Below, piece by piece: positions 4,424-41,900 of a stretch of DNA of 64,000 bases (its first letter is position 1; every line of letters begins with the position of its first letter). The position numbers and the translations under genes were made by a program. Source of the stretch: an uncultured Bacilli bacterium (GTDB taxonomy: Bacteria > Bacillota_I > Bacilli_A > RF39 > UBA660). Under the pieces are notes generated by a model, which made no database searches, was not told where the DNA came from, and saw only the letters and a program-made list of their open reading frames with translations. The DNA lies in contig CATBQD010000005.1 in the NCBI GenBank assembly GCA_949505625.1, positions 3,046-67,045 on the forward strand. Reading direction: 5' to 3'.

Positions 4424-4663
4424 ATAGCACCTCCTAAATTTAATACAATTTATTATAACATAAATTTAATATATCAATATAATTTATTTTTTTGAAATGC
4501 CTTATGAATAAATTTCTAGTTTATTACAAATATCACTAACTCCAAAAACAGAGTCAACACATATAACAAGTTTTCTTAATGTGGATTCCATCTTGATTAT
4601 ATCATTCATTATTATCATATACTTTAAAACATATAAAAATTCGATATTTAAAAGGATCAATTT

Positions 4664-4878
4664 TTCTATCAGCAACTAGTGTGAGTAATAACCATATTTG
4701 CATCTTTTAAAAAACAAAAAATCAACAATCTATTTTTAGAAAGTTGATTTTGTTTTTAAATTCAAATCATTTTTAAGAGTCCAAATGGATTTCCTTCTAG
4801 TGCTCAAAAGGTAAAAGTACGACAATTCTTTGAATCAAAGAAATAGTGAGTAATAAGCTTAACTAATGAAACTATAAC
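4664..4878. repeat. ~210-nt repeat copy R1 (3' element of the GluRS-family gene); contains a bidirectional terminator hairpin AAAATCAAC-N16-GTTGATTTT
   Basis: ~85% identical to 6922..7138, aligned by eye; begins 10 nt after the aaRS stop codon. Confidence 0.6.
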
Positions 4879-4887
4879 ATAATTTAA

Positions 4888-6525
4888 TTAGTTAAAATAG
4901 TCAAATCTAGATTTTATTCTATCTTTTCCTAATAATTTCATTATTTCATATAAATCTGGAGTCATAGACTTAGTAGTTAAAGCAACTCTAATAACCATAC
5001 TAACATCTACAATACTTCCTTTATATTTATCAGAATTATCTTTATAATCTTTTGTATTAGAAGCATACCCTAACTCATCAGATAATGATTTCATTTTTGC
5101 AAACCACATATCTTTATCATCACTAATATTATAATATTTATTAATATAAACATCTAATATATTTTTTATTTCATCTGTATTAGTTATATTTTGCCATTCA
5201 TAATTATTTTCATCATCAAACAACTCATCATACATATACCAAATATAGGATTTAATTTCAGAATAACAACTAAAATCTTTTCTTGGCTTTTTTTGTTCTC
5301 TCTCTATATTTAATATTTCTATAGTATAATCTTTATATTTGGTAATAAGAGTTGCAAAGCTCTTATCAAATTCATTAGCCCATACTAATAAATTATCATA
5401 TACTTCTTTGGCTGATAATCTTGACAAATAATTTTTAGAAATATTAATTACCTTTTCTAGATCAAATATAGGTCCACTTTTGCTCATCTTATTAAACGTA
5501 AAAGTAAAATTTCTATAAGATATATTTGAATTTTGTAAAAACCAACCCTCGAAATTAGAATTCATTATAGTTGCAAAATATAATTTAATTGCCTCTACTG
5601 GAATTCCCTTTTCGTGATAAAACGACACTGCTGCTTCTGGATCTTTTCTTTTACTTATCTTTCTTATCGTATTTCCTTCTTTAATATTTAGTGGAAGTAA
5701 ATGTGCAAATTTTGGTGCTTTAAATCCACAAGCCTCCCATAATTCCAAGTGATATGGTACTGATGATATATATGAATCATCTCTAGTCACAGTAGTAACT
5801 CTCATAAAATGATCATCACATACATGGGCTAAAGCATAAGGAGGAATTCCATCTGACTTAATTAAAACTTGGTCTATATCATTTTCAGGCAATTCAATAA
5901 TACCTTTTACTAAATCTTTAAATACTATTTTCTTGTTGAAATCTCCTAATGATTTTAATCTCAATACCCATTTATCACCATTATCAATATGATTTTTCAC
6001 TTCATCATAACTTAAATTTCTACATTTAGCATAATGACCATAATAACCAATTCTATCTTTTCTTTTTTCTTGCTTTTCTCTCATCTCGGCTAAATCATTT
6101 TCAGAGCAAAAGCAAGGGTATGCTCTTCCTATTGATACTAGATATTTAGCAACTATATGATAAATCTCTTCTCTTTGAGTTTGAATATATGGTCCATAGT
6201 TTCCGCCTTTAATTGGGTGTTCATTAACTATATAATTATAATTTTCTAAATCTTCAATAATTAGTTGAGTTCCATTTTCGATCGCTCTTTTATTGTCAGT
6301 ATCTTCAATTCTTAACATAAATATTCCGTTAGTTTGATTGGCAATAACCTCTGGAATAAATGATGCATATAAATTTCCCATATGCATTCTCCCAGTAGGG
6401 CTGGGCGCAAATCTGCACACTTCAGCACCATCAACCAAATTTCTTGGTGAGTACATTTTTTCCAAATCTTCAATTGTTTTTGTAATATTTGGATATAATA
6501 AATCCGCTAAATCGTTACTTGTCAT
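4888..6525 (-). CDS. gltX: class I aminoacyl-tRNA synthetase, GluRS family (divergent; RFAPSPTG and RIEDTDNKR GluRS signatures but HxGN and KMSKS motifs like class-I LysRS)
   Basis: Motifs CRFAPSPTGRMHMGNL, LRIEDTDNKR and KMSKSGP. The ORF-finder start at 6567 lies inside the leader terminator; the likely true start is the MTSNDL Met at 6525, preceded by an AGGAAAGGAAAGG RBS. Confidence 0.7.
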   Translation of the reverse strand: MTSNDLADLLYPNITKTIEDLEKMYSPRNLVDGAEVCRFAPSPTGRMHMGNLYASFIPEVIANQTNGIFMLRIEDTDNKRAIENGTQLIIEDLENYNYIVNEHPIKGGNYGPYIQTQREEIYHIVAKYLVSIGRAYPCFCSENDLAEMREKQEKRKDRIGYYGHYAKCRNLSYDEVKNHIDNGDKWVLRLKSLGDFNKKIVFKDLVKGIIELPENDIDQVLIKSDGIPPYALAHVCDDHFMRVTTVTRDDSYISSVPYHLELWEACGFKAPKFAHLLPLNIKEGNTIRKISKRKDPEAAVSFYHEKGIPVEAIKLYFATIMNSNFEGWFLQNSNISYRNFTFTFNKMSKSGPIFDLEKVINISKNYLSRLSAKEVYDNLLVWANEFDKSFATLITKYKDYTIEILNIEREQKKPRKDFSCYSEIKSYIWYMYDELFDDENNYEWQNITNTDEIKNILDVYINKYYNISDDKDMWFAKMKSLSDELGYASNTKDYKDNSDKYKGSIVDVSMVIRVALTTKSMTPDLYEIMKLLGKDRIKSRFDYFN

Positions 6526-6527
6526 TT

Positions 6528-6790
6528 TGACCTTTCCTTTCCTAAATAAAAAAATAGATTCATCCAATAAGGACGAATCTATCGTGGTACCACCTTAATT
6601 TATATAACTTTAAAGTTATATATCTCAACATCTTAACGCGATTAACGAAATAACTTGAATACGCTATTTGGCTCCAAAGCTTCTTTCAAACATTTCAAAT
6701 GTTAATTTCCACCAACCATTAACTCTCTTTGCATTGAAAATATTTTACTCTTCTTCTTCATTGCTTTCATAATATGTGCTAATTTTATCA
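6528..6790 (-). promoter_or_regulatory. T-box leader (tRNA-sensing riboswitch) with terminator/antiterminator
   Basis: minus-strand RNA carries AAUUAAGGUGGUACCACG (T-box consensus AAUUAGGGUGGUACCGCG), followed by hairpin GAUAGAUUCGUCC-UUAUU-GGAUGAAUCUAUU and a U7 run directly before the RBS. Stem-I-like AGAGAG and GGUGGAA elements lie upstream. The specifier is ambiguous (GAAAGAAG could read as Glu GAA or Lys AAG). Confidence 0.6.
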
Positions 6791-6896
6791 CTTTTTAATT
6801 CACTTGTAAATAGATAAGTTGCTGTTCTCTCAAAATATCTAGAATTTTTTAATTTTTGATATTGGTGATTAGCCATTTCTTCTTTCGTTAATATTT

Positions 6897-7138
6897 ATTA
6901 CTCTTGAATGAAAAGTTCGAGTTTCCTATCGACCAGTTGTGAGTAATAACCACATTTGCATCTTTTAAAAAGCAAAAAATCAACAATCTATTTTTAGAAA
7001 GTTGATTTTGTTTTTAAATTCAAACCATTTTTGAGAGTCCGAATAGATTTCCTTCTGGTGCCCTTTGGGAGGACGTACAACAACTCCTAGGGAAAAATAA
7101 ATAGTCAGTAATAATTCATTAACTGACTATAGTATATC
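6897..7138. repeat. repeat copy R2 (3' element of lysK) plus a 38-nt motif shared with the tRNA-Thr-like flank; includes the lysK terminator hairpin ATAGTCAGT-N12-ACTGACTAT and the bidirectional AAAATCAAC/GTTGATTTT hairpin
   Basis: aligned by eye to 4664..4878; first 38 nt (6897..6935) also match 10650..10688. Confidence 0.6.
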
Positions 7139-7163
7139 ATTTTTTGCATTAAAATCATAGTAA

Positions 7164-8717
7164 TCATAATAAATTTTTGATTTTTTCTTTATCTATTGCC
7201 ATTAAAAATAATCCTAATTTTGGTCCTTGATCAGTACCTAATAACATATTGTATAATATTTGAAAATATCTTTTTTGTGCTTGTTTTAATTCTTTATCAA
7301 CTAAAATCTCATCTTTCACAACATCATACAATGCTGTTTGTAATTCATTTGTAGTATTAAATTGGAAATCTAACAATTTAATAGTTTTATTTAACCATTC
7401 TTTTTCTAAATCACTTATTGTATTATAAAAATTATCATTTCTTTGATTTAATAGATTTACTTGATAATCAGAACCATATTCTTTAACCCAATTTATAGCT
7501 AGATCTAATCTATTACTAAATTGTTCAGAATTAACATCAATATCTTCTTTAGATAATAATTCTTTTAATAAATCAATATCAAAATTCACAATAGGAAGAA
7601 ATGTTACTAAATAACTAAAATTAGGATTTTTTAAATATTCTTCTTTTACATTTGTTAAATCTAAAATACTTTTGTTTTTTTCATCAATGTTATCATTAAA
7701 GTATAATTTTACCCATCTATCAAATTCACTATAATATCTAATAACATCATTATCAAGAGCAATATCAAATGCATGCATATTGTCAAATCTTGCATAAAAC
7801 CACCAAATAATATTTTTATCATATACTTTTAATAAATCTGTTATTGTTAAAACATTGCCTGTAGATGATGACATTTTAGCACCGCCACCTTTTATCCCTA
7901 TAAAATTATATGGGATATAAATAGGTGGTTCATAATTAAATATCTCTCTTGCAACTCTTTCAGATACTGCTTTACTACCATTCGAAGCAGAATGATCAAT
8001 GCCACCAGTTTCAAAAGTTACTCCTTCTACCATCCAGCGCATTGGCCAATCAACTTTCCATTGAAGTTTAATATTAGTAGCATTATTAATATTTAAATCA
8101 CCTCTATGTCCACAATTACACATATATTTAACATTACCAGAATCAGATTCGTAATTTATTATTTTTGTTGAATCTTTGTGACAATTAGGACAATAAATAC
8201 TTATAGGATAATAATTTCTTCTTTCTTCATCAGTAGATTCTTGAGTTCTAAAATCATCTATAATACTGAAAATTTTATCTCTATTATCCATTGCAACTTT
8301 AATATATTTATTATATCTACCACTTTGATACTCTTTTGCTTGATATATGCATTCTACTTCAACATCCATTGATTTTAATTCATTTAAAAATCGATTTTCC
8401 ATATAAGATGCATATGATTCATTTTCACTAAATGGACTAGGTAATTCAGTATAAGGCATACCAATATATTTTTCATAACTTGAGTCGATATTTCCAGGGA
8501 CCTTTCTAAATCTATCAAATTCATCAAAAGATAAAATATATCTTACTTTCTTTCCTAACTTTTTTAACTCTTTTGCAACAAGATATGGAGTAGCAATTTC
8601 TCTAAAATTTCCAATATGTACAAAACCACTTGGACTTACACCACTAGCTACCGTATAAACTTCTTCATTTGGTCTCTCATTAATAATTTTTAGTGCAACT
8701 TCTTTTGCCCAATTCAT
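7164..8717 (-). CDS. lysK: lysyl-tRNA synthetase, class I (LysRS-I)
   Basis: SGVSPSGFVHIGNFREI (class-I LysRS HxGN), FDEFDRFRKVP, KMSSSTGN; 517 aa. Confidence 0.85.
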   Translation of the reverse strand: MNWAKEVALKIINERPNEEVYTVASGVSPSGFVHIGNFREIATPYLVAKELKKLGKKVRYILSFDEFDRFRKVPGNIDSSYEKYIGMPYTELPSPFSENESYASYMENRFLNELKSMDVEVECIYQAKEYQSGRYNKYIKVAMDNRDKIFSIIDDFRTQESTDEERRNYYPISIYCPNCHKDSTKIINYESDSGNVKYMCNCGHRGDLNINNATNIKLQWKVDWPMRWMVEGVTFETGGIDHSASNGSKAVSERVAREIFNYEPPIYIPYNFIGIKGGGAKMSSSTGNVLTITDLLKVYDKNIIWWFYARFDNMHAFDIALDNDVIRYYSEFDRWVKLYFNDNIDEKNKSILDLTNVKEEYLKNPNFSYLVTFLPIVNFDIDLLKELLSKEDIDVNSEQFSNRLDLAINWVKEYGSDYQVNLLNQRNDNFYNTISDLEKEWLNKTIKLLDFQFNTTNELQTALYDVVKDEILVDKELKQAQKRYFQILYNMLLGTDQGPKLGLFLMAIDKEKIKNLL

Positions 8718-8739
8718 TTTTTATCATTCCTTTCAATTT

Positions 8740-9077
8740 AAAAAAGTGACTTAAAACAAATTGATTGTCCTAAGCCACTTATCTTTTATTTTATAAATAA
8801 AGTTTAGAAAATCTATTTTGAAGATATGCTAAAACAACCAATATTATTTATTGATTTCTTGTTCTTCTTTATAGATTTCTTTATTTGGTTGTTTAACATA
8901 AAAATCTTCCTTTCCGTTAGTATTATAACATATTCAATAATTTATGTCAAAAAAATGATGGGTACCCCAGGCGAGATGAATGCTCACATACAAAGTATGC
9001 TTACTGGCTTAGCCAACACATCGTTAATCCCTCACAAGTATCCCATCTACAAATATATTATAGCACAAATATAAAAA
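8740..9077 (-). promoter_or_regulatory. long 5' leader of lysK with an intrinsic terminator hairpin just upstream of the RBS (candidate attenuator; class not identified, no clear T-box motif)
   Basis: 8-bp stem GUGGCUUA/UAAGUCAC (8746..8778) followed by U6 on the minus strand, ~30 nt before the lysK ATG; 320-nt non-coding leader; a possible long-range pairing GAUGGG/CCCAUC. Confidence 0.3.
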
Positions 9078-10025
9078 TTATTCACATTTTTTATTACTTT
9101 TGTATTCATCAATGTAAACTTGACTTACATATTCAATTGCTATATCACTATATTTGTTAATTGTGTTTTTTGAATATGAGAATTGGTAACAATAATCTTG
9201 ATTATTTTTAATTCCTTTTCGTTTACAAATATCTTGAAATTTATTTGGTGTAAAACCATGATTCGGTCCAAGTGATAATTCTAACGTTTCTTTTATTTTC
9301 TTTACAACATCATTTGTTGTATAAGGGTGAGTTTTTTCAATATCTTTTGGAACATTAATTATAGTTGCTCGTTCGCCACCATCTTTTACAATTGTAAATT
9401 TAATATCAGCTTCTGCTTCTTTTTTAGTAGAAACTAACCTTAAAGTTTGACTTAGCGATTCATCTGAATCTAATTCCTTTTTAATTTTTTCTAGCATAAG
9501 TAAATTATTAGGATTTAATATTAAAGAAGAAACATCTTTATCATTTCCCGGATTAACTAATGCGATATATGGTGTAACCTTTTCATTTAAGTTATATTCT
9601 GTAAAATGTTTTTTGAAAAACTTATTATAGTTTGTTAAACATCTTTGAAAAGCAGGAGATAATATATAATCATATTCTGGTAAAATTAAATGAGTCGCTT
9701 TATTTCTTATATTTCTAATAAAAGAAATATTATTTTTTGTTTTATCTGTTGTACTTGTAAACACTTTTTCTACACACTCATCTAATCCAATTGTTCTATT
9801 TGAATCATCTTTATAATTAATAACATTTATATCTTTAGCTTTATTAATTAAATATGCCTTTAATAATAACTCCCACGCATTACATATAAAGAAGCAAAAA
9901 CCTTCAGTTCTATAGTTGATAGTTGGTTTATTTATTATTTCGATTGACATTAAATATGCTTCTTCTGATTTGTTTAATAAAGCATTAATATAATTATTTA
10001 ATTCATCAGTTGTCATGAATATCAT
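9078..10025 (-). CDS. HEPN-domain protein (Rx4H motif), abortive-infection/toxin-like
   Basis: ISFIRNIRNKATHL contains R-x4-H; helical N-terminal NAWELLLKAYL typical of Abi-type HEPN proteins; 315 aa. Confidence 0.45.
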   Translation of the reverse strand: MIFMTTDELNNYINALLNKSEEAYLMSIEIINKPTINYRTEGFCFFICNAWELLLKAYLINKAKDINVINYKDDSNRTIGLDECVEKVFTSTTDKTKNNISFIRNIRNKATHLILPEYDYILSPAFQRCLTNYNKFFKKHFTEYNLNEKVTPYIALVNPGNDKDVSSLILNPNNLLMLEKIKKELDSDESLSQTLRLVSTKKEAEADIKFTIVKDGGERATIINVPKDIEKTHPYTTNDVVKKIKETLELSLGPNHGFTPNKFQDICKRKGIKNNQDYCYQFSYSKNTINKYSDIAIEYVSQVYIDEYKSNKKCE

Positions 10026-10161
10026 CTCCTTTTAATTTATTATTATAACATGATTTTTGTCATTTTAATCCGATAAATTTTACTACACACGCTCATTGAT
10101 TATGTCAATGTGCAAGTGTGTTTACTAAATTGACACCATTTTGTATTTTACGGCTTACGAA

Positions 10162-10587
10162 TTAAAAAATATCGTAGTCCTTTTCTTCTAAATACAAAGT
10201 CATTTCTTTTTCTTTAGATGTATCTTTTGTAATATAAGTAATATCAGAATCATTATACAAGTTGTTAGCATAGCAATCTTTGATTTGATTTATAACTATA
10301 TCTTTTTCTTTATCTTTTCCAGACAACAAGATATTTCTAAATATATCTTTTAATTTAATCCTTTGGGAATAACCATTTATAAATACATCATCACATTCTC
10401 CAAATAATAAATAGTCATTTCCATTAACTGATAAGATAGGAGGTTTCACATAGGCAATATTTGTTCCTTTGATATTTTTTACACATCCACTTGTTAAGTT
10501 TGAACTTACACCTGCAAACCTACATATCATATCAATCTTTTTCTTTAATTCACTACTAATTTCTAACTCTTTTACTTCAACTTCCAT
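10162..10587 (-). CDS. hypothetical acidic 141-aa protein, upstream partner of the HEPN gene
   Basis: ORF with GAGGAG RBS; no recognisable motif. Confidence 0.45.
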   Translation of the reverse strand: MEVEVKELEISSELKKKIDMICRFAGVSSNLTSGCVKNIKGTNIAYVKPPILSVNGNDYLLFGECDDVFINGYSQRIKLKDIFRNILLSGKDKEKDIVINQIKDCYANNLYNDSDITYITKDTSKEKEMTLYLEEKDYDIF

Positions 10588-10690
10588 TTAAAACTCCTCA
10601 CTTTCATTCATAAATAACAAAAAAACTAGACGGTACTTCTAGTTAATAATTTATTACTCTCGAATGAAAAGTTCGAGTTTCCTATCAATC

Positions 10691-10764
10691 TGGTGCCGCA
10701 AGTAGGAATCGGACCTACGTTAAAGCCTTACCATGGCCTCGTAATACCATTATACTATTGCGGC
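10691..10764 (-). tRNA. atypical tRNA-Thr(GGU)-like gene (possible pseudo- or specialised tRNA)
   Basis: 7-bp acceptor GCCGCAA/UUGCGGC, discriminator A, encoded CCA. Anticodon stem AGGCC/GGCUU with loop AUGGUAA (U33, anticodon GGU, A37). T-stem GUAGG/CCUAC but non-canonical T-loop UCCGAUU; short D-arm with GG. Folded by eye only. Confidence 0.45.
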
Positions 10765-10813: not shown

Positions 10814-12496
<1,683 letters not shown>

Positions 12497-40644: not shown

Positions 40645-41250
40645 TTATTTTTTAGGATTGTAAAACAGTGATATCACTTTCGAAAATTCAAATAAAATAA
40701 TATTACTTTTGTTCACTGCAAAGCCTTTTCCCATTGCTTTCCCACCTATTGTTAGTGCTGCAATTAATGCAGTTACTATCAAGCTGACTAACAATGTATC
40801 TAAATTTAAGGAGTTTGATATAGTAATTGATAAAATAGCGCCTGTGGAACCCGATATGATTCCACAAATGTCTCCTATTACATCATTGCAAAAAGAGGAA
40901 ACCTTATCTGCACTTTTTTTAAATTTTACAGCTACTTTAGCACCTCTTACTTTTCTAGCAGCCATTGAATGAAAAGGAATTTCATCGGCAGCCGTTACTG
41001 CTACTCCCACCATATCAAATAAAATTCCTATTCCTATGAATAAAATTAATATAATAATTCCTATCCAAAGATTCACTTTAGGCATAACCGTTTCAGAAAG
41101 TGACGAAAATACAATGGACAATGTAAAAGCAATTATCGATATTTTCAAAATCCAATTATAATCAACCAGTTTTTTTTCCTTTTTATTTTTTTTGTTTTTA
41201 TTTAATTCATCAATATATTTTCCCATTATACACCTCATAAAAATATACAA
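40645..41250 (-). CDS. small 4-TM membrane protein with DxxxD motif (OapA-like candidate)
   Basis: four hydrophobic helices, NDVIGDICG (DxxxD); directly downstream, on the same strand, of the GC-rich non-coding region. Confidence 0.4.
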   Translation of the reverse strand: MYIFMRCIMGKYIDELNKNKKNKKEKKLVDYNWILKISIIAFTLSIVFSSLSETVMPKVNLWIGIIILILFIGIGILFDMVGVAVTAADEIPFHSMAARKVRGAKVAVKFKKSADKVSSFCNDVIGDICGIISGSTGAILSITISNSLNLDTLLVSLIVTALIAALTIGGKAMGKGFAVNKSNIILFEFSKVISLFYNPKK

Positions 41251-41289
41251 AAAAAATGGCTATTTATATAGTAAACTTTACGTCTTAAG

Positions 41290-41900
41290 GTCAAGTAGGA
41301 TTTCCCTTACTTCAAACTCTTTCGTTACCAAAAGAGGGGTTCCCCATTATAGAAGTAAATATATCGTCACCGAATATATGACTTGATTGCCACTGAGTAC
41401 GCACTGCAATCCTATATAAATAGACACTCTAGGAGATTTCCTCGACAACTCTGTTTATTATTAGTTCCTTTTTGCAAGTATTGTTTCATATTGCAATCAT
41501 TTTAGTTGGTTGGCCAATCAACTAAAAGTCGTTCAATAATCCCCAAATACTCACTCAGGACAAGCTACACTACTCGTAACTTATCATCACATAGTAGGTT
41601 CAATCCTAAGTCGTCATTTCTCCATCAACTTAACGTGTATAGGGAAATAACAAGATTAGGTCTCCAAGATAGATGGGTCAGATCCTGTATGCCATTACAG
41701 TTGCCCAGCTATCCATACCTCCCAGCACTCACCCCAAACTGGGCGTAAGAAGCAAGCACCAGAAGTTTCACAGATATGCTCTTTAGTGACTTTTTAGGGC
41801 CACCTTCATAATAAACGAAATTGACTAGAATAATGTGCCATTTCAATTTACATTTCAACATTCTACCATATTTAAAATAGAATGTCAAATTGTTCAATCA
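41290..41900 (-). ncRNA. candidate large structured ncRNA (OLE-RNA-like, ~610 nt); strand inferred from the downstream gene
   Basis: ~640 nt without protein-like ORFs, local GC ~42-45% against ~27% background, many local inverted repeats; only S/R-rich junk ORFs. Confidence 0.35.

Follow-up and report, generated by a model that had tools for sequence, protein, structure and literature searches.

Two genes for class I aminoacyl-tRNA synthetases (aaRS) standing in tandem in an uncultured Bacilli bacterium (GTDB lineage RF39; UBA660), one of the GluRS family and one for a class I LysRS (LysRS-I), are each followed by a copy of the same direct repeat, which we analysed in a stretch of 64,000 nucleotides of contig CATBQD010000005.1, called here the window. 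Our comparison with related genomes makes it very probable that these repeats are right-end attachment (att) junctions of two serine-recombinase integrative and mobilizable elements (IMEs), which were stacked at the 3' end of a tRNA-Thr(GGT) gene and have since decayed. A sequence-only reading of the window had listed recombination scars of an aaRS-delivering cassette among its explanations; this was essentially right, and the scars can now be specified as IME right ends with their att junctions, lying in tandem at tRNA-Thr. Both aaRS genes are placed within decayed, head-to-tail elements of the type found complete on a related contig (locus L024) because remnants of a recombinase and of a relaxase lie there, and the repeats are read as att-junction scars because of the complete elements in relatives, these remnants and a strain polymorphism at the motif CACCA. 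The module boundaries, the gene remnants, the polymorphism at the junction and the complete relatives are all direct observations.

The direct repeat extends, as had been noticed, over 177 ungapped nucleotides at 85% identity (4680-4856 against 6938-7114), or with gaps over about 245 nt at 79% (4651-4898 against 6911-7155; blastn within the window, E 4e-55). The two copies, A and B, are spaced 2258 nt apart, and blastn found no further full copy in the 64 kb. They begin at or just past the stop codons of the GluRS-like and LysRS-I genes, in agreement with that reading, and the homology stops short of the coding sequence. The arrangement recurs in four independent assemblies (ENA, NCBI and two JGI samples), which rules out an assembly artefact. 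The bidirectional hairpin AAAATCAAC-N16-GTTGATTTT flanked by A/T runs is present in both copies (4709-4756 and 6967-7014), as is the T-box leader between them; the first hairpin with its T-run stands out in copy B (7093-7131) and is less distinct in copy A. The alignment does cover the full length of the unit, but identity is uneven along it: the proximal 100 nt or so agree at 58%, and the distal 121 nt at 93%. There is also a third, partial repeat that had escaped attention (6887-6939 against 10642-10695, 89-95%), which ties copy B to the sequence 3' of tRNA-Thr.

Both copies have a composite make-up. Each aaRS stop codon is followed by a right arm of about 100 nt (arms a and b being the parts that agree at 58%), then by a 121-nt module, T (T_a and T_b, the parts at 93%), and then by the start of a left end, R1. 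The right arm includes a hairpin with a T-run and terminates in GGGCACCA in copy B and in GAGCACTA in copy A. Behind T, the same R1 start (GATTGATAGGAAACTCGAAC...) as is found 3' of tRNA-Thr is preceded by a decayed CACCA-like motif. The repeat of about 210-245 nt is therefore right arm plus T plus R1 start, and its internal boundaries match element ends found in other genomes. The repeats do not bracket one simple cassette, as had been supposed; each belongs to a separate decayed element, with the 121-nt module in between.

The relatives are given as L-numbered loci, those with complete elements being metagenome contigs; strain variants were recovered by exact-protein look-ups, locus L030 through its DUF3644 gene and three loci with GluRS as bait. 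The repeat modules recur at ten or more further loci, following seven or more different tRNA genes, and beside four aaRS types as well as non-aaRS cargo. Complete elements were found behind four tRNA species, with a T-box-GluRS unit or an unknown gene as cargo, and they share one order: the tRNA gene, R1, a gene for an 88-aa protein, a large serine recombinase, a MobV relaxase, a DUF3644 gene (candidate single-gene defence family PDC-S19 of PADLOC), cargo, and a right arm ending in GCACCA. In L024 this series follows tRNA-Leu(GAG) and runs from an R1 96% identical to that of the window through the 88-aa gene, a 613-aa serine recombinase, MobV, a hairpin, DUF3644, a T-box and GluRS to a right arm with the terminus GGGCACCA, behind which a second, diverged R1 begins. 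Its recombinase and relaxase are assigned by Pfam (Resolvase plus Recombinase, and Mob_Pre), the full MobV gene matches NF041497 with 114 bits, and the cluster of L024-type recombinases has 226 members at 90% identity or above. L030 carries the same backbone behind tRNA-Arg(CCT), with a full MobV, a 236-aa unknown cargo protein and a matching right arm. Reduced and tandem forms exist as well: L039 is a minimal recombinase-less cassette (tRNA-Leu(CAA), R1, hairpin, T-box, GluRS, right arm, R1), and in L037 cassettes stand in tandem (GluRS, right arm, CACCA, R1, hairpin, GlyRS, right arm). All left junctions in our junction table read (G/A)CACCA followed by GATTGATAGG, and nearly all right ends read GGGCACCA or a close variant, the others being TCGCACCA in the L003 element and GGTACCA at the GlyRS arm of L037. 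No DNA match to the repeat unit was found in annotated plasmids and phages.

Strain variants place the polymorphism exactly at these junctions. L003 is 99.8% identical to the window up to position 10696, that is, up to the CACCA of the tRNA end, and carries different DNA beyond, which encodes a large serine recombinase (52% identical to that of L024) and has the right end ...TCGCACCA. L012 is 98% identical from position 4487 downwards, where the strain-conserved DNA picks up again; at the place of GluRS it has a hairpin, a T-box, an archaeal-type non-discriminating AspRS (AspRS-ND), a right arm and T, hence a third copy of the unit.

In the window all genes between 1 and 10800 lie on the minus strand, in the transcript order tRNA-Thr(GGT), a 141-aa open reading frame (ORF), the DUF3644 gene, LysRS-I, T-box, GluRS-family gene and WYL regulator (Table 1). 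The left end of element 1, R1a, is 89-96% identical to the sequences after tRNA-Leu(GAG) in L024, after tRNA-Arg(CCT) in L030 and behind the recombinase element of L003, and its first 28 nt are repeated directly 3' of tRNA-Leu(CAA) in L039. The 141-aa ORF is a fusion, residues 4-82 being 56% identical to the L024 88-aa protein and residues 79-141 being 67% identical to the last 63 residues (346-408) of the L024 MobV relaxase, with LKD/LKE microhomology at the joint; by this comparison it is the footprint of a deletion which would have deprived element 1 of its recombinase and of the greater part of its relaxase. A palindromic hairpin, op38, which in complete elements lies 3' of the relaxase gene, has blastn matches in L012 (1-38), L024 (6540-6580), L030 (9904-9939), L037 and L039. 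DUF3644/PDC-S19 is a constant passenger of the family, with 88% identity between the window and both L024 and L030, 80-88% across the closer loci and 55% in L034. Right arm b shares 72-79% identity with the right ends of L024 and L030 and, within the whole unit, 81% with the L012 copy. The L037 and L039 right ends agree with that of L024 at 94-96%, and all of these, arm b included, terminate in GGGCACCA or GAGCACCA.

Less is left of element 2. Its truncated R1b is followed by a 35-aa internal fragment of a large serine recombinase, 60% identical to residues 249-283 of the L024 enzyme (tblastn, E 4e-8), and the promoter-like site (6810->6782) of the GluRS T-box lies partly within it; a 43-aa ORF after R1b, considered as a gene, turned out to be this fragment. 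The GluRS-family protein is 84% identical to the GluRS within the complete L024 element and reaches 276 bits with TIGR00464, slightly under the cutoff of 290, and GluRS is likewise preceded by a T-box leader of similar score (120 bits) in L024, L037 and L039. The specifier region of the window T-box (6672-6690, minus strand) reads GAAAGAAGCUUU; by the rule of a codon, then a purine, then a helix, the specifier would be GAA (Glu), fitting GluRS, and the covariance-model alignment gives AGA instead. Beyond T_a lies R1c, which may be a remnant of an older element or original flank. A plus-strand small peptide in copy A was rejected as a real ORF, its ATG being ATA in copy B.

Table 1. Features of the tRNA-Thr(GGT) locus in transcript order (window positions; arms, R1 and T are named as in the text)
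Feature	Position	Strand	Basis
tRNA-Thr(GGT), intact	10691..10764	-	ARAGORN, Rfam
tRNA-Thr 3' end ...GCGGCACCA, putative integration junction	core CACCA 10691-10695	-	L003 divergence past 10696
R1a, left end of element 1: GATTGATAGGAAACTCGAAC..., two hairpins, then ribosome-binding site of first gene	10594..10690	-	comparison
141-aa fusion ORF	10162..10587	-	similarity to L024 proteins
op38, palindromic hairpin	10086..10123	-	blastn
DUF3644 / EC042_2821-like gene, PDC-S19	9078..10025	-	Pfam; PADLOC E 1e-69
Class I LysRS, cargo position of element 1	7164..8717	-	Pfam PF01921; TIGR00467, 404 bits
Right arm b, right end of element 1; proximal part of copy B; terminator-like hairpin 7093-7131, terminus ...GGGCACCA at 7056-7063	7056..7163	-	comparison with relatives
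T_b, 121 nt, terminator hairpin 6967-7014; distal part of copy B	6935..7055	-	93% to T_a
R1b, truncated left end of element 2	6887..6934	-	89-95% to R1a
Large serine recombinase, internal fragment (pseudogene remnant, 35 aa)	6790..6894	-	tblastn
T-box leader of GluRS gene	6566..6770	-	Rfam RF00230, 121.7 bits
GluRS-family gene, 545 aa, cargo of element 2	4888..6525	-	Pfam PF00749, PF19269
Right arm a, right end of element 2, terminus ...GAGCACTA (decayed); proximal part of copy A	4798..4887	-	alignment
T_a, second 121-nt copy, terminator hairpin 4709-4756; distal part of copy A	4677..4797	-	alignment
R1c, degenerate R1-type left end	4622..4676	-	alignment with R1 variants of L012, L037, L039

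From these comparisons we infer how the recombination proceeds chemically, where the crossover takes place, in which order the events occurred and what T represents, and it would be logical to suggest the following course. An intact element would consist, behind a tRNA gene ending in CACCA, of R1, the 88-aa gene, the large serine recombinase, MobV, a hairpin, DUF3644/PDC-S19, a small-RNA-like element, cargo (often a leader plus an aaRS gene) and a terminator-hairpin right arm ending in GGGCACCA. The recombinase would join a circular attP (right arm-CACCA-R1) to the CCA end of the tRNA gene; integration would rebuild the tRNA and leave CACCA at both junctions, so that repeated insertion at one tRNA would stack elements head to tail. 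Element 1 (R1a to LysRS-I and right arm b) would then have lost its recombinase and most of its relaxase, and element 2 (R1b, recombinase fragment, T-box, GluRS, right arm a) nearly everything but the cargo, with T, which has an R1-like start, a strong predicted terminator and a right-arm-like end, lying between each right arm and the next left end. Today the repeats most likely act only as terminators insulating the aaRS genes and as homology for cassette loss or exchange; possibly they are also substrates for a recombinase supplied in trans, although the att competence of copy A is doubtful since its core is mutated to GCACTA.

With respect to the features that define an IME, the window itself retains no recombinase of its own beyond the 35-aa fragment and the fusion ORF, and of a relaxase only the last 63 MobV codons are left, no origin of transfer being identified; recombinases are found in L024, L030 and L003, and full MobV genes in L024 and L030. 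The attL/attR pair is seen as CACCA-R1 and right arm-GCACCA at tRNA 3' ends in the window, L003, L024, L030 and L039. Elements 1 and 2, with their genes lost and both R1 and right arm-GCACCA retained, have the composition of cis-mobilizable elements (CIMEs).

Several points weigh against an origin of the repeats in IMEs. The window has no intact recombinase or relaxase, and an empty attB was recovered for none of the tRNAs. Known serine-recombinase IMEs leave repeats of about 2 bp and usually insert within genes (PMC5704250). R1-like sequence flanks the elements on both sides, so that the crossover may lie at more than one point, and the R1-like starts behind many tRNAs (also in L040 and L042) may in part represent a tRNA terminator typical of the lineage and used as attB. 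None of the complete elements contains T, which is only weakly similar to element ends (best p 0.006-0.04, in some copies only); the likeness between right arms and the 3' halves of tRNAs does not reach significance. The frequency of aaRS cargo is biased, because three of the loci came from the GluRS bait.

The module T deserves separate consideration. It occurs only in the window (two copies), L012 and L007, and is absent from L024, L030, L037 and L039; exact-pattern scans with its 26/34-nt hairpin core gave one genome match, L007, and none in the metagenome contig or viral contig sets. In L007 it is situated directly 3' of an intact tRNA-Leu(CAA), starting at ...GAGCACCA, and is followed by ...CTCGCACCA, an R1-like sequence and a hairpin. 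The first part of T looks like R1 with 5 nt deleted and its last part like a right arm, and with moderate confidence we take T for a gene-less miniature derivative of the same element family. The same position behind tRNA-Leu(CAA) in L007 also allows a different origin, in which T would be the original 3' flank of that tRNA, its trailer and terminator, captured through imprecise excision, so that the mobile cassette would be right arm plus flank. The pairing of right arm and T in all three aaRS cassettes (LysRS, GluRS, AspRS) of the window's species agrees with this, and co-transfer of composite accreted structures is documented (PMC5704250). However, T of L007 lies between two junction cores, resembling an inserted unit, tRNA-Leu(CAA) of L039 runs straight into R1 with T missing, and 93% identity in T beside 58% in the adjacent right arms argues against long co-inheritance as a block; the R1-like start and right-arm-like end of T also speak for an element, though with weak statistics. 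We consider this capture, the chief competing account of T, possible but rather unlikely.

Some tRNA-related readings were tried and rejected. The proximal unit is not a decayed whole tRNA-Leu pseudogene, for its alignment to the L007 tRNA-Leu is no better than to shuffles (p 0.08-0.47) and the match is confined to the last 9 nt or so (CGAGCACCA). A decayed tRNA-Thr 3' half at the end of T reached p = 0.02 in L007 alone, copies A, B and C being not significant, and is retained as a hint only; mimicry of a tRNA T-arm/acceptor by right arms was not significant save in one comparison (p = 0.02).

Far less probable is that the unit, or T, encodes a functional RNA, whether a small RNA derived from the 3' untranslated region or the tRNA trailer, or an element for regulation or processing of the aaRS transcripts. 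Copies A and B and that of L007 share an identical 34-nt hairpin with its loop, from which L012 departs at one position, although the flanks are at 73-93%. Single-sequence folds are modestly stabler than shuffles (z -2.0 and -2.6), and in L007 T forms the trailer of an intact tRNA-Leu(CAA); tRNA trailers are known as a source of sponge small RNAs, 3'ETS-leuZ for instance. Nothing, however, exceeds an Rfam threshold, no promoter-like site was found inside T on either strand, and the RNAalifold covariation term is 0.06 kcal/mol from four sequences only, a weak and in fact uninformative test, because the sole robust helix never varies. T is missing 3' of the same GluRS gene in L024, L037 and L039, and would therefore be dispensable for aaRS expression. 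The suggestion, made from the letters alone, of a small RNA family or a shared regulatory or processing element thus finds no support, there being neither an Rfam family nor covariation beyond the invariant hairpin. As a terminator the hairpin is plausible: RNAalifold and RNAfold predict a hairpin with T6-7 in all copies, and a simple consensus scan made no call, the stem being too poor in G-C pairs and the loop long. An origin by mere tandem duplication at this place, or by unequal crossing-over, which would have copied an intergenic terminator region with no mobile element involved, could appeal to there being two full copies only in 64 kb, 2258 nt apart, but it is hardly conceivable given the modules at the other loci, tRNA genes and cargoes, the recombinase and relaxase remnants within the bracketed segments and the unequal divergence of the repeat halves.

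A PyrG-leader attenuator (RF02371), considered with pyrG nearby, was rejected: the two matches reach 29.7 and 31.5 bits where the gathering score is 65, and L007 lacks the GGACTCT on which they rest. The terminator 5' strand reads AAAATCAAC, where such a leader would call for a C/U-rich strand able to pair with a poly-G extension, and the unit sits downstream of aaRS genes, not upstream of pyrG. The pyrG gene itself (CTP synthase, 10895-12496, plus strand) is split into ORFs of 370 and 148 aa in the window and L002 and intact (533 aa) in L001, which is otherwise 99.99% identical; a mutation of the strain (nonsense or frameshift) or else a fault in the assembly would account for it. The window, from a genome with 28% G+C, also holds a full-length OLE (ornate large extremophilic) RNA at 41240-41857 (minus strand, 419 bits, E 9e-120).

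As for the cargo, both the GluRS and the LysRS-I family have many members, conserved at 72-90% in 'Bacilli bacterium' metagenome-assembled genomes, and the window genes could be sole genomic copies rather than extra ones. Remoter GluRS relatives are found in unrelated contexts with the modules absent. LysRS-I relatives occupy housekeeping-looking neighbourhoods with tRNA and R1-like starts upstream and, in L040 and L041, also a right-arm hairpin downstream, which suggests an ancient delivery followed by domestication; alternatively, the R1-like starts may be a lineage-typical tRNA terminator used as attB. No T-box was found upstream of LysRS-I, permissive settings included. Its leader (8718-8950, minus strand) has a promoter-like site, a ribosome-binding site, a 28-codon ORF at 8899-8813 (MLNNQIKKSIKKNKKSINNIGCFSISSK, with 7 Lys) and a strong hairpin with T6 right before the LysRS start, and the peptide is conserved in L040 and L042, so that it looks like a leader-peptide attenuator sensing Lys-tRNA supply.

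A more speculative idea, which we hold as tentative and rather doubtful, is that a widespread serine-recombinase family of gut 'Bacilli' serves as a platform docking at tRNA CCA ends and exchanging self-regulated aaRS cassettes, each made of a T-box or leader-peptide leader, a GluRS, LysRS-I, AspRS-ND or GlyRS gene and a terminator/att arm, with T as 121-nt mini-elements mobilized in trans. Strains would thereby swap or stack synthetases, for example against natural aaRS inhibitors, and in some lineages an imported LysRS-I would have become the resident essential enzyme.

Other observations concern the passengers and neighbours of the family. Directly 3' of every DUF3644/PDC-S19 gene there is a conserved element of about 100 nt (window 8949-9050, minus strand; L024 7590-7722, L030 10959-11077, L031 10950-11078, L033 1496-1625, L037 1022-1154 and, on the opposite strand, L034 2104-2197) with its own TGnTATAAT-like box and a terminal T-run. 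Its consensus fold has 31 pairs, 7 of them with double (compensatory) changes, mostly from the divergent L034; it has no Rfam family and is a candidate small RNA partner of the candidate defence gene. In L031 (9755-13496) DUF3644 lies 170 nt after tRNA-Thr(CGT), R1 being absent; next come two unknown genes and then a free-standing protein with an aminoacyl-tRNA editing domain (PF04073), which is translation-related. In L022 (5313-7511) a GluRS gene, an 87% relative, lies about 210 nt downstream of the tmRNA gene, and we found there no R1, right arm, T module or above-threshold T-box; the tmRNA gene is a classic integration hot spot.

Horizontal transfer of aaRS genes (patchy class I LysRS, archaeal-type AspRS, second copies conferring resistance) is usually inferred from phylogeny, and the vehicle is rarely seen. 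The elements described here would offer a visible one, a compact recombinase and relaxase element with a complete self-regulated aaRS unit, which docks at tRNA genes, builds up tandem arrays and then degenerates on the spot while the synthetase stays behind. They would also widen the range of serine-recombinase IMEs to docking at the 3' CCA of several tRNA species with the tRNA unharmed, as against disruption of dispensable genes. The junctions CACCA-GATTGATAGG and ...GGGCACCA may be used as a simple signature for finding such cassettes in metagenomes, and the conserved 3' repeats appear mostly as historical scars and terminators rather than as a new RNA family. Accretion of IMEs and CIMEs is already known; docking of a serine recombinase at the CCA of several tRNA species with exchangeable self-regulated aaRS cargo was not found described in the literature we searched, nor was it met among annotated plasmids and phages.

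Among known systems, integron attC cassettes have a superficial likeness, being an array of single genes, each with a related imperfect sequence of about 100-250 nt. However, a tyrosine recombinase of the IntI type and an attI were both missing from the first 12 kb, where 8 ORFs were scanned. The GluRS and AspRS cassettes each have a T-box leader, preceded in the case of GluRS by a promoter-like site, and what is repeated is the end of an element with its junction, whereas attC is a folded single strand. Genomic islands and prophages that use tyrosine integrases also target tRNA 3' ends, restore the tRNA and have direct repeats at their bounds, but the window family has no tyrosine integrase, its tRNA-derived repeat is about 5-6 nt, and it uses several tRNA species. 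SCC elements of staphylococci (SCCmec, pseudo-SCC) share large serine recombinases (Ccr), insertion at the 3' end of a conserved gene which is left active, and tandem composite islands with repeated junctions and recombinase-less derivatives. The top NCBIfam match of the L024 recombinase is indeed CcrB, but at 142 bits against a cutoff of 900 it is no Ccr orthologue; the SCC target is rlmH/orfX, and the window family, at the tRNA CCA end, is far smaller and relaxase-bearing.

Serine-recombinase IMEs with Mob/Pre relaxases do exist, as Tn4451 (PMC5704250), and the clostridial Tn4451/Tn4453 (TnpX/TndX with the Mob/Pre protein TnpZ) are alike in their size of about 6-7 kb, one large serine recombinase plus MobV/Mob_Pre, few cargo genes and a home in Firmicutes; the complete relatives have the same pair of enzymes on a small element. 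Tn4451 has low target specificity and 2-bp GA ends (PMC5704250), whereas the insertions here are all at tRNA CCA ends with a CACCA core, and its cargo is catP instead of aaRS and PDC-S19. Recombinases of annotated plasmids and phages are at most 35% identical to those of our family, the nearest plasmid-borne one at about 33%.

Site-specific IMEs are often found in tandem with decayed CIMEs that retain attL and attR, and the ICESt1/CIME arrays of Streptococcus thermophilus (PMC5704250) are alike in site-specific insertion at a 3' end, in the loss of integration and transfer genes with att sites kept, and in the entry of a new element into a retained site, giving head-to-tail arrays, the element of L003 being the live one on top. 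The classic arrays have tyrosine integrases and identical att cores of tens of bp, whereas the family described here uses a large serine recombinase, shares only the core CACCA and carries aminoacyl-tRNA synthetases as cargo.

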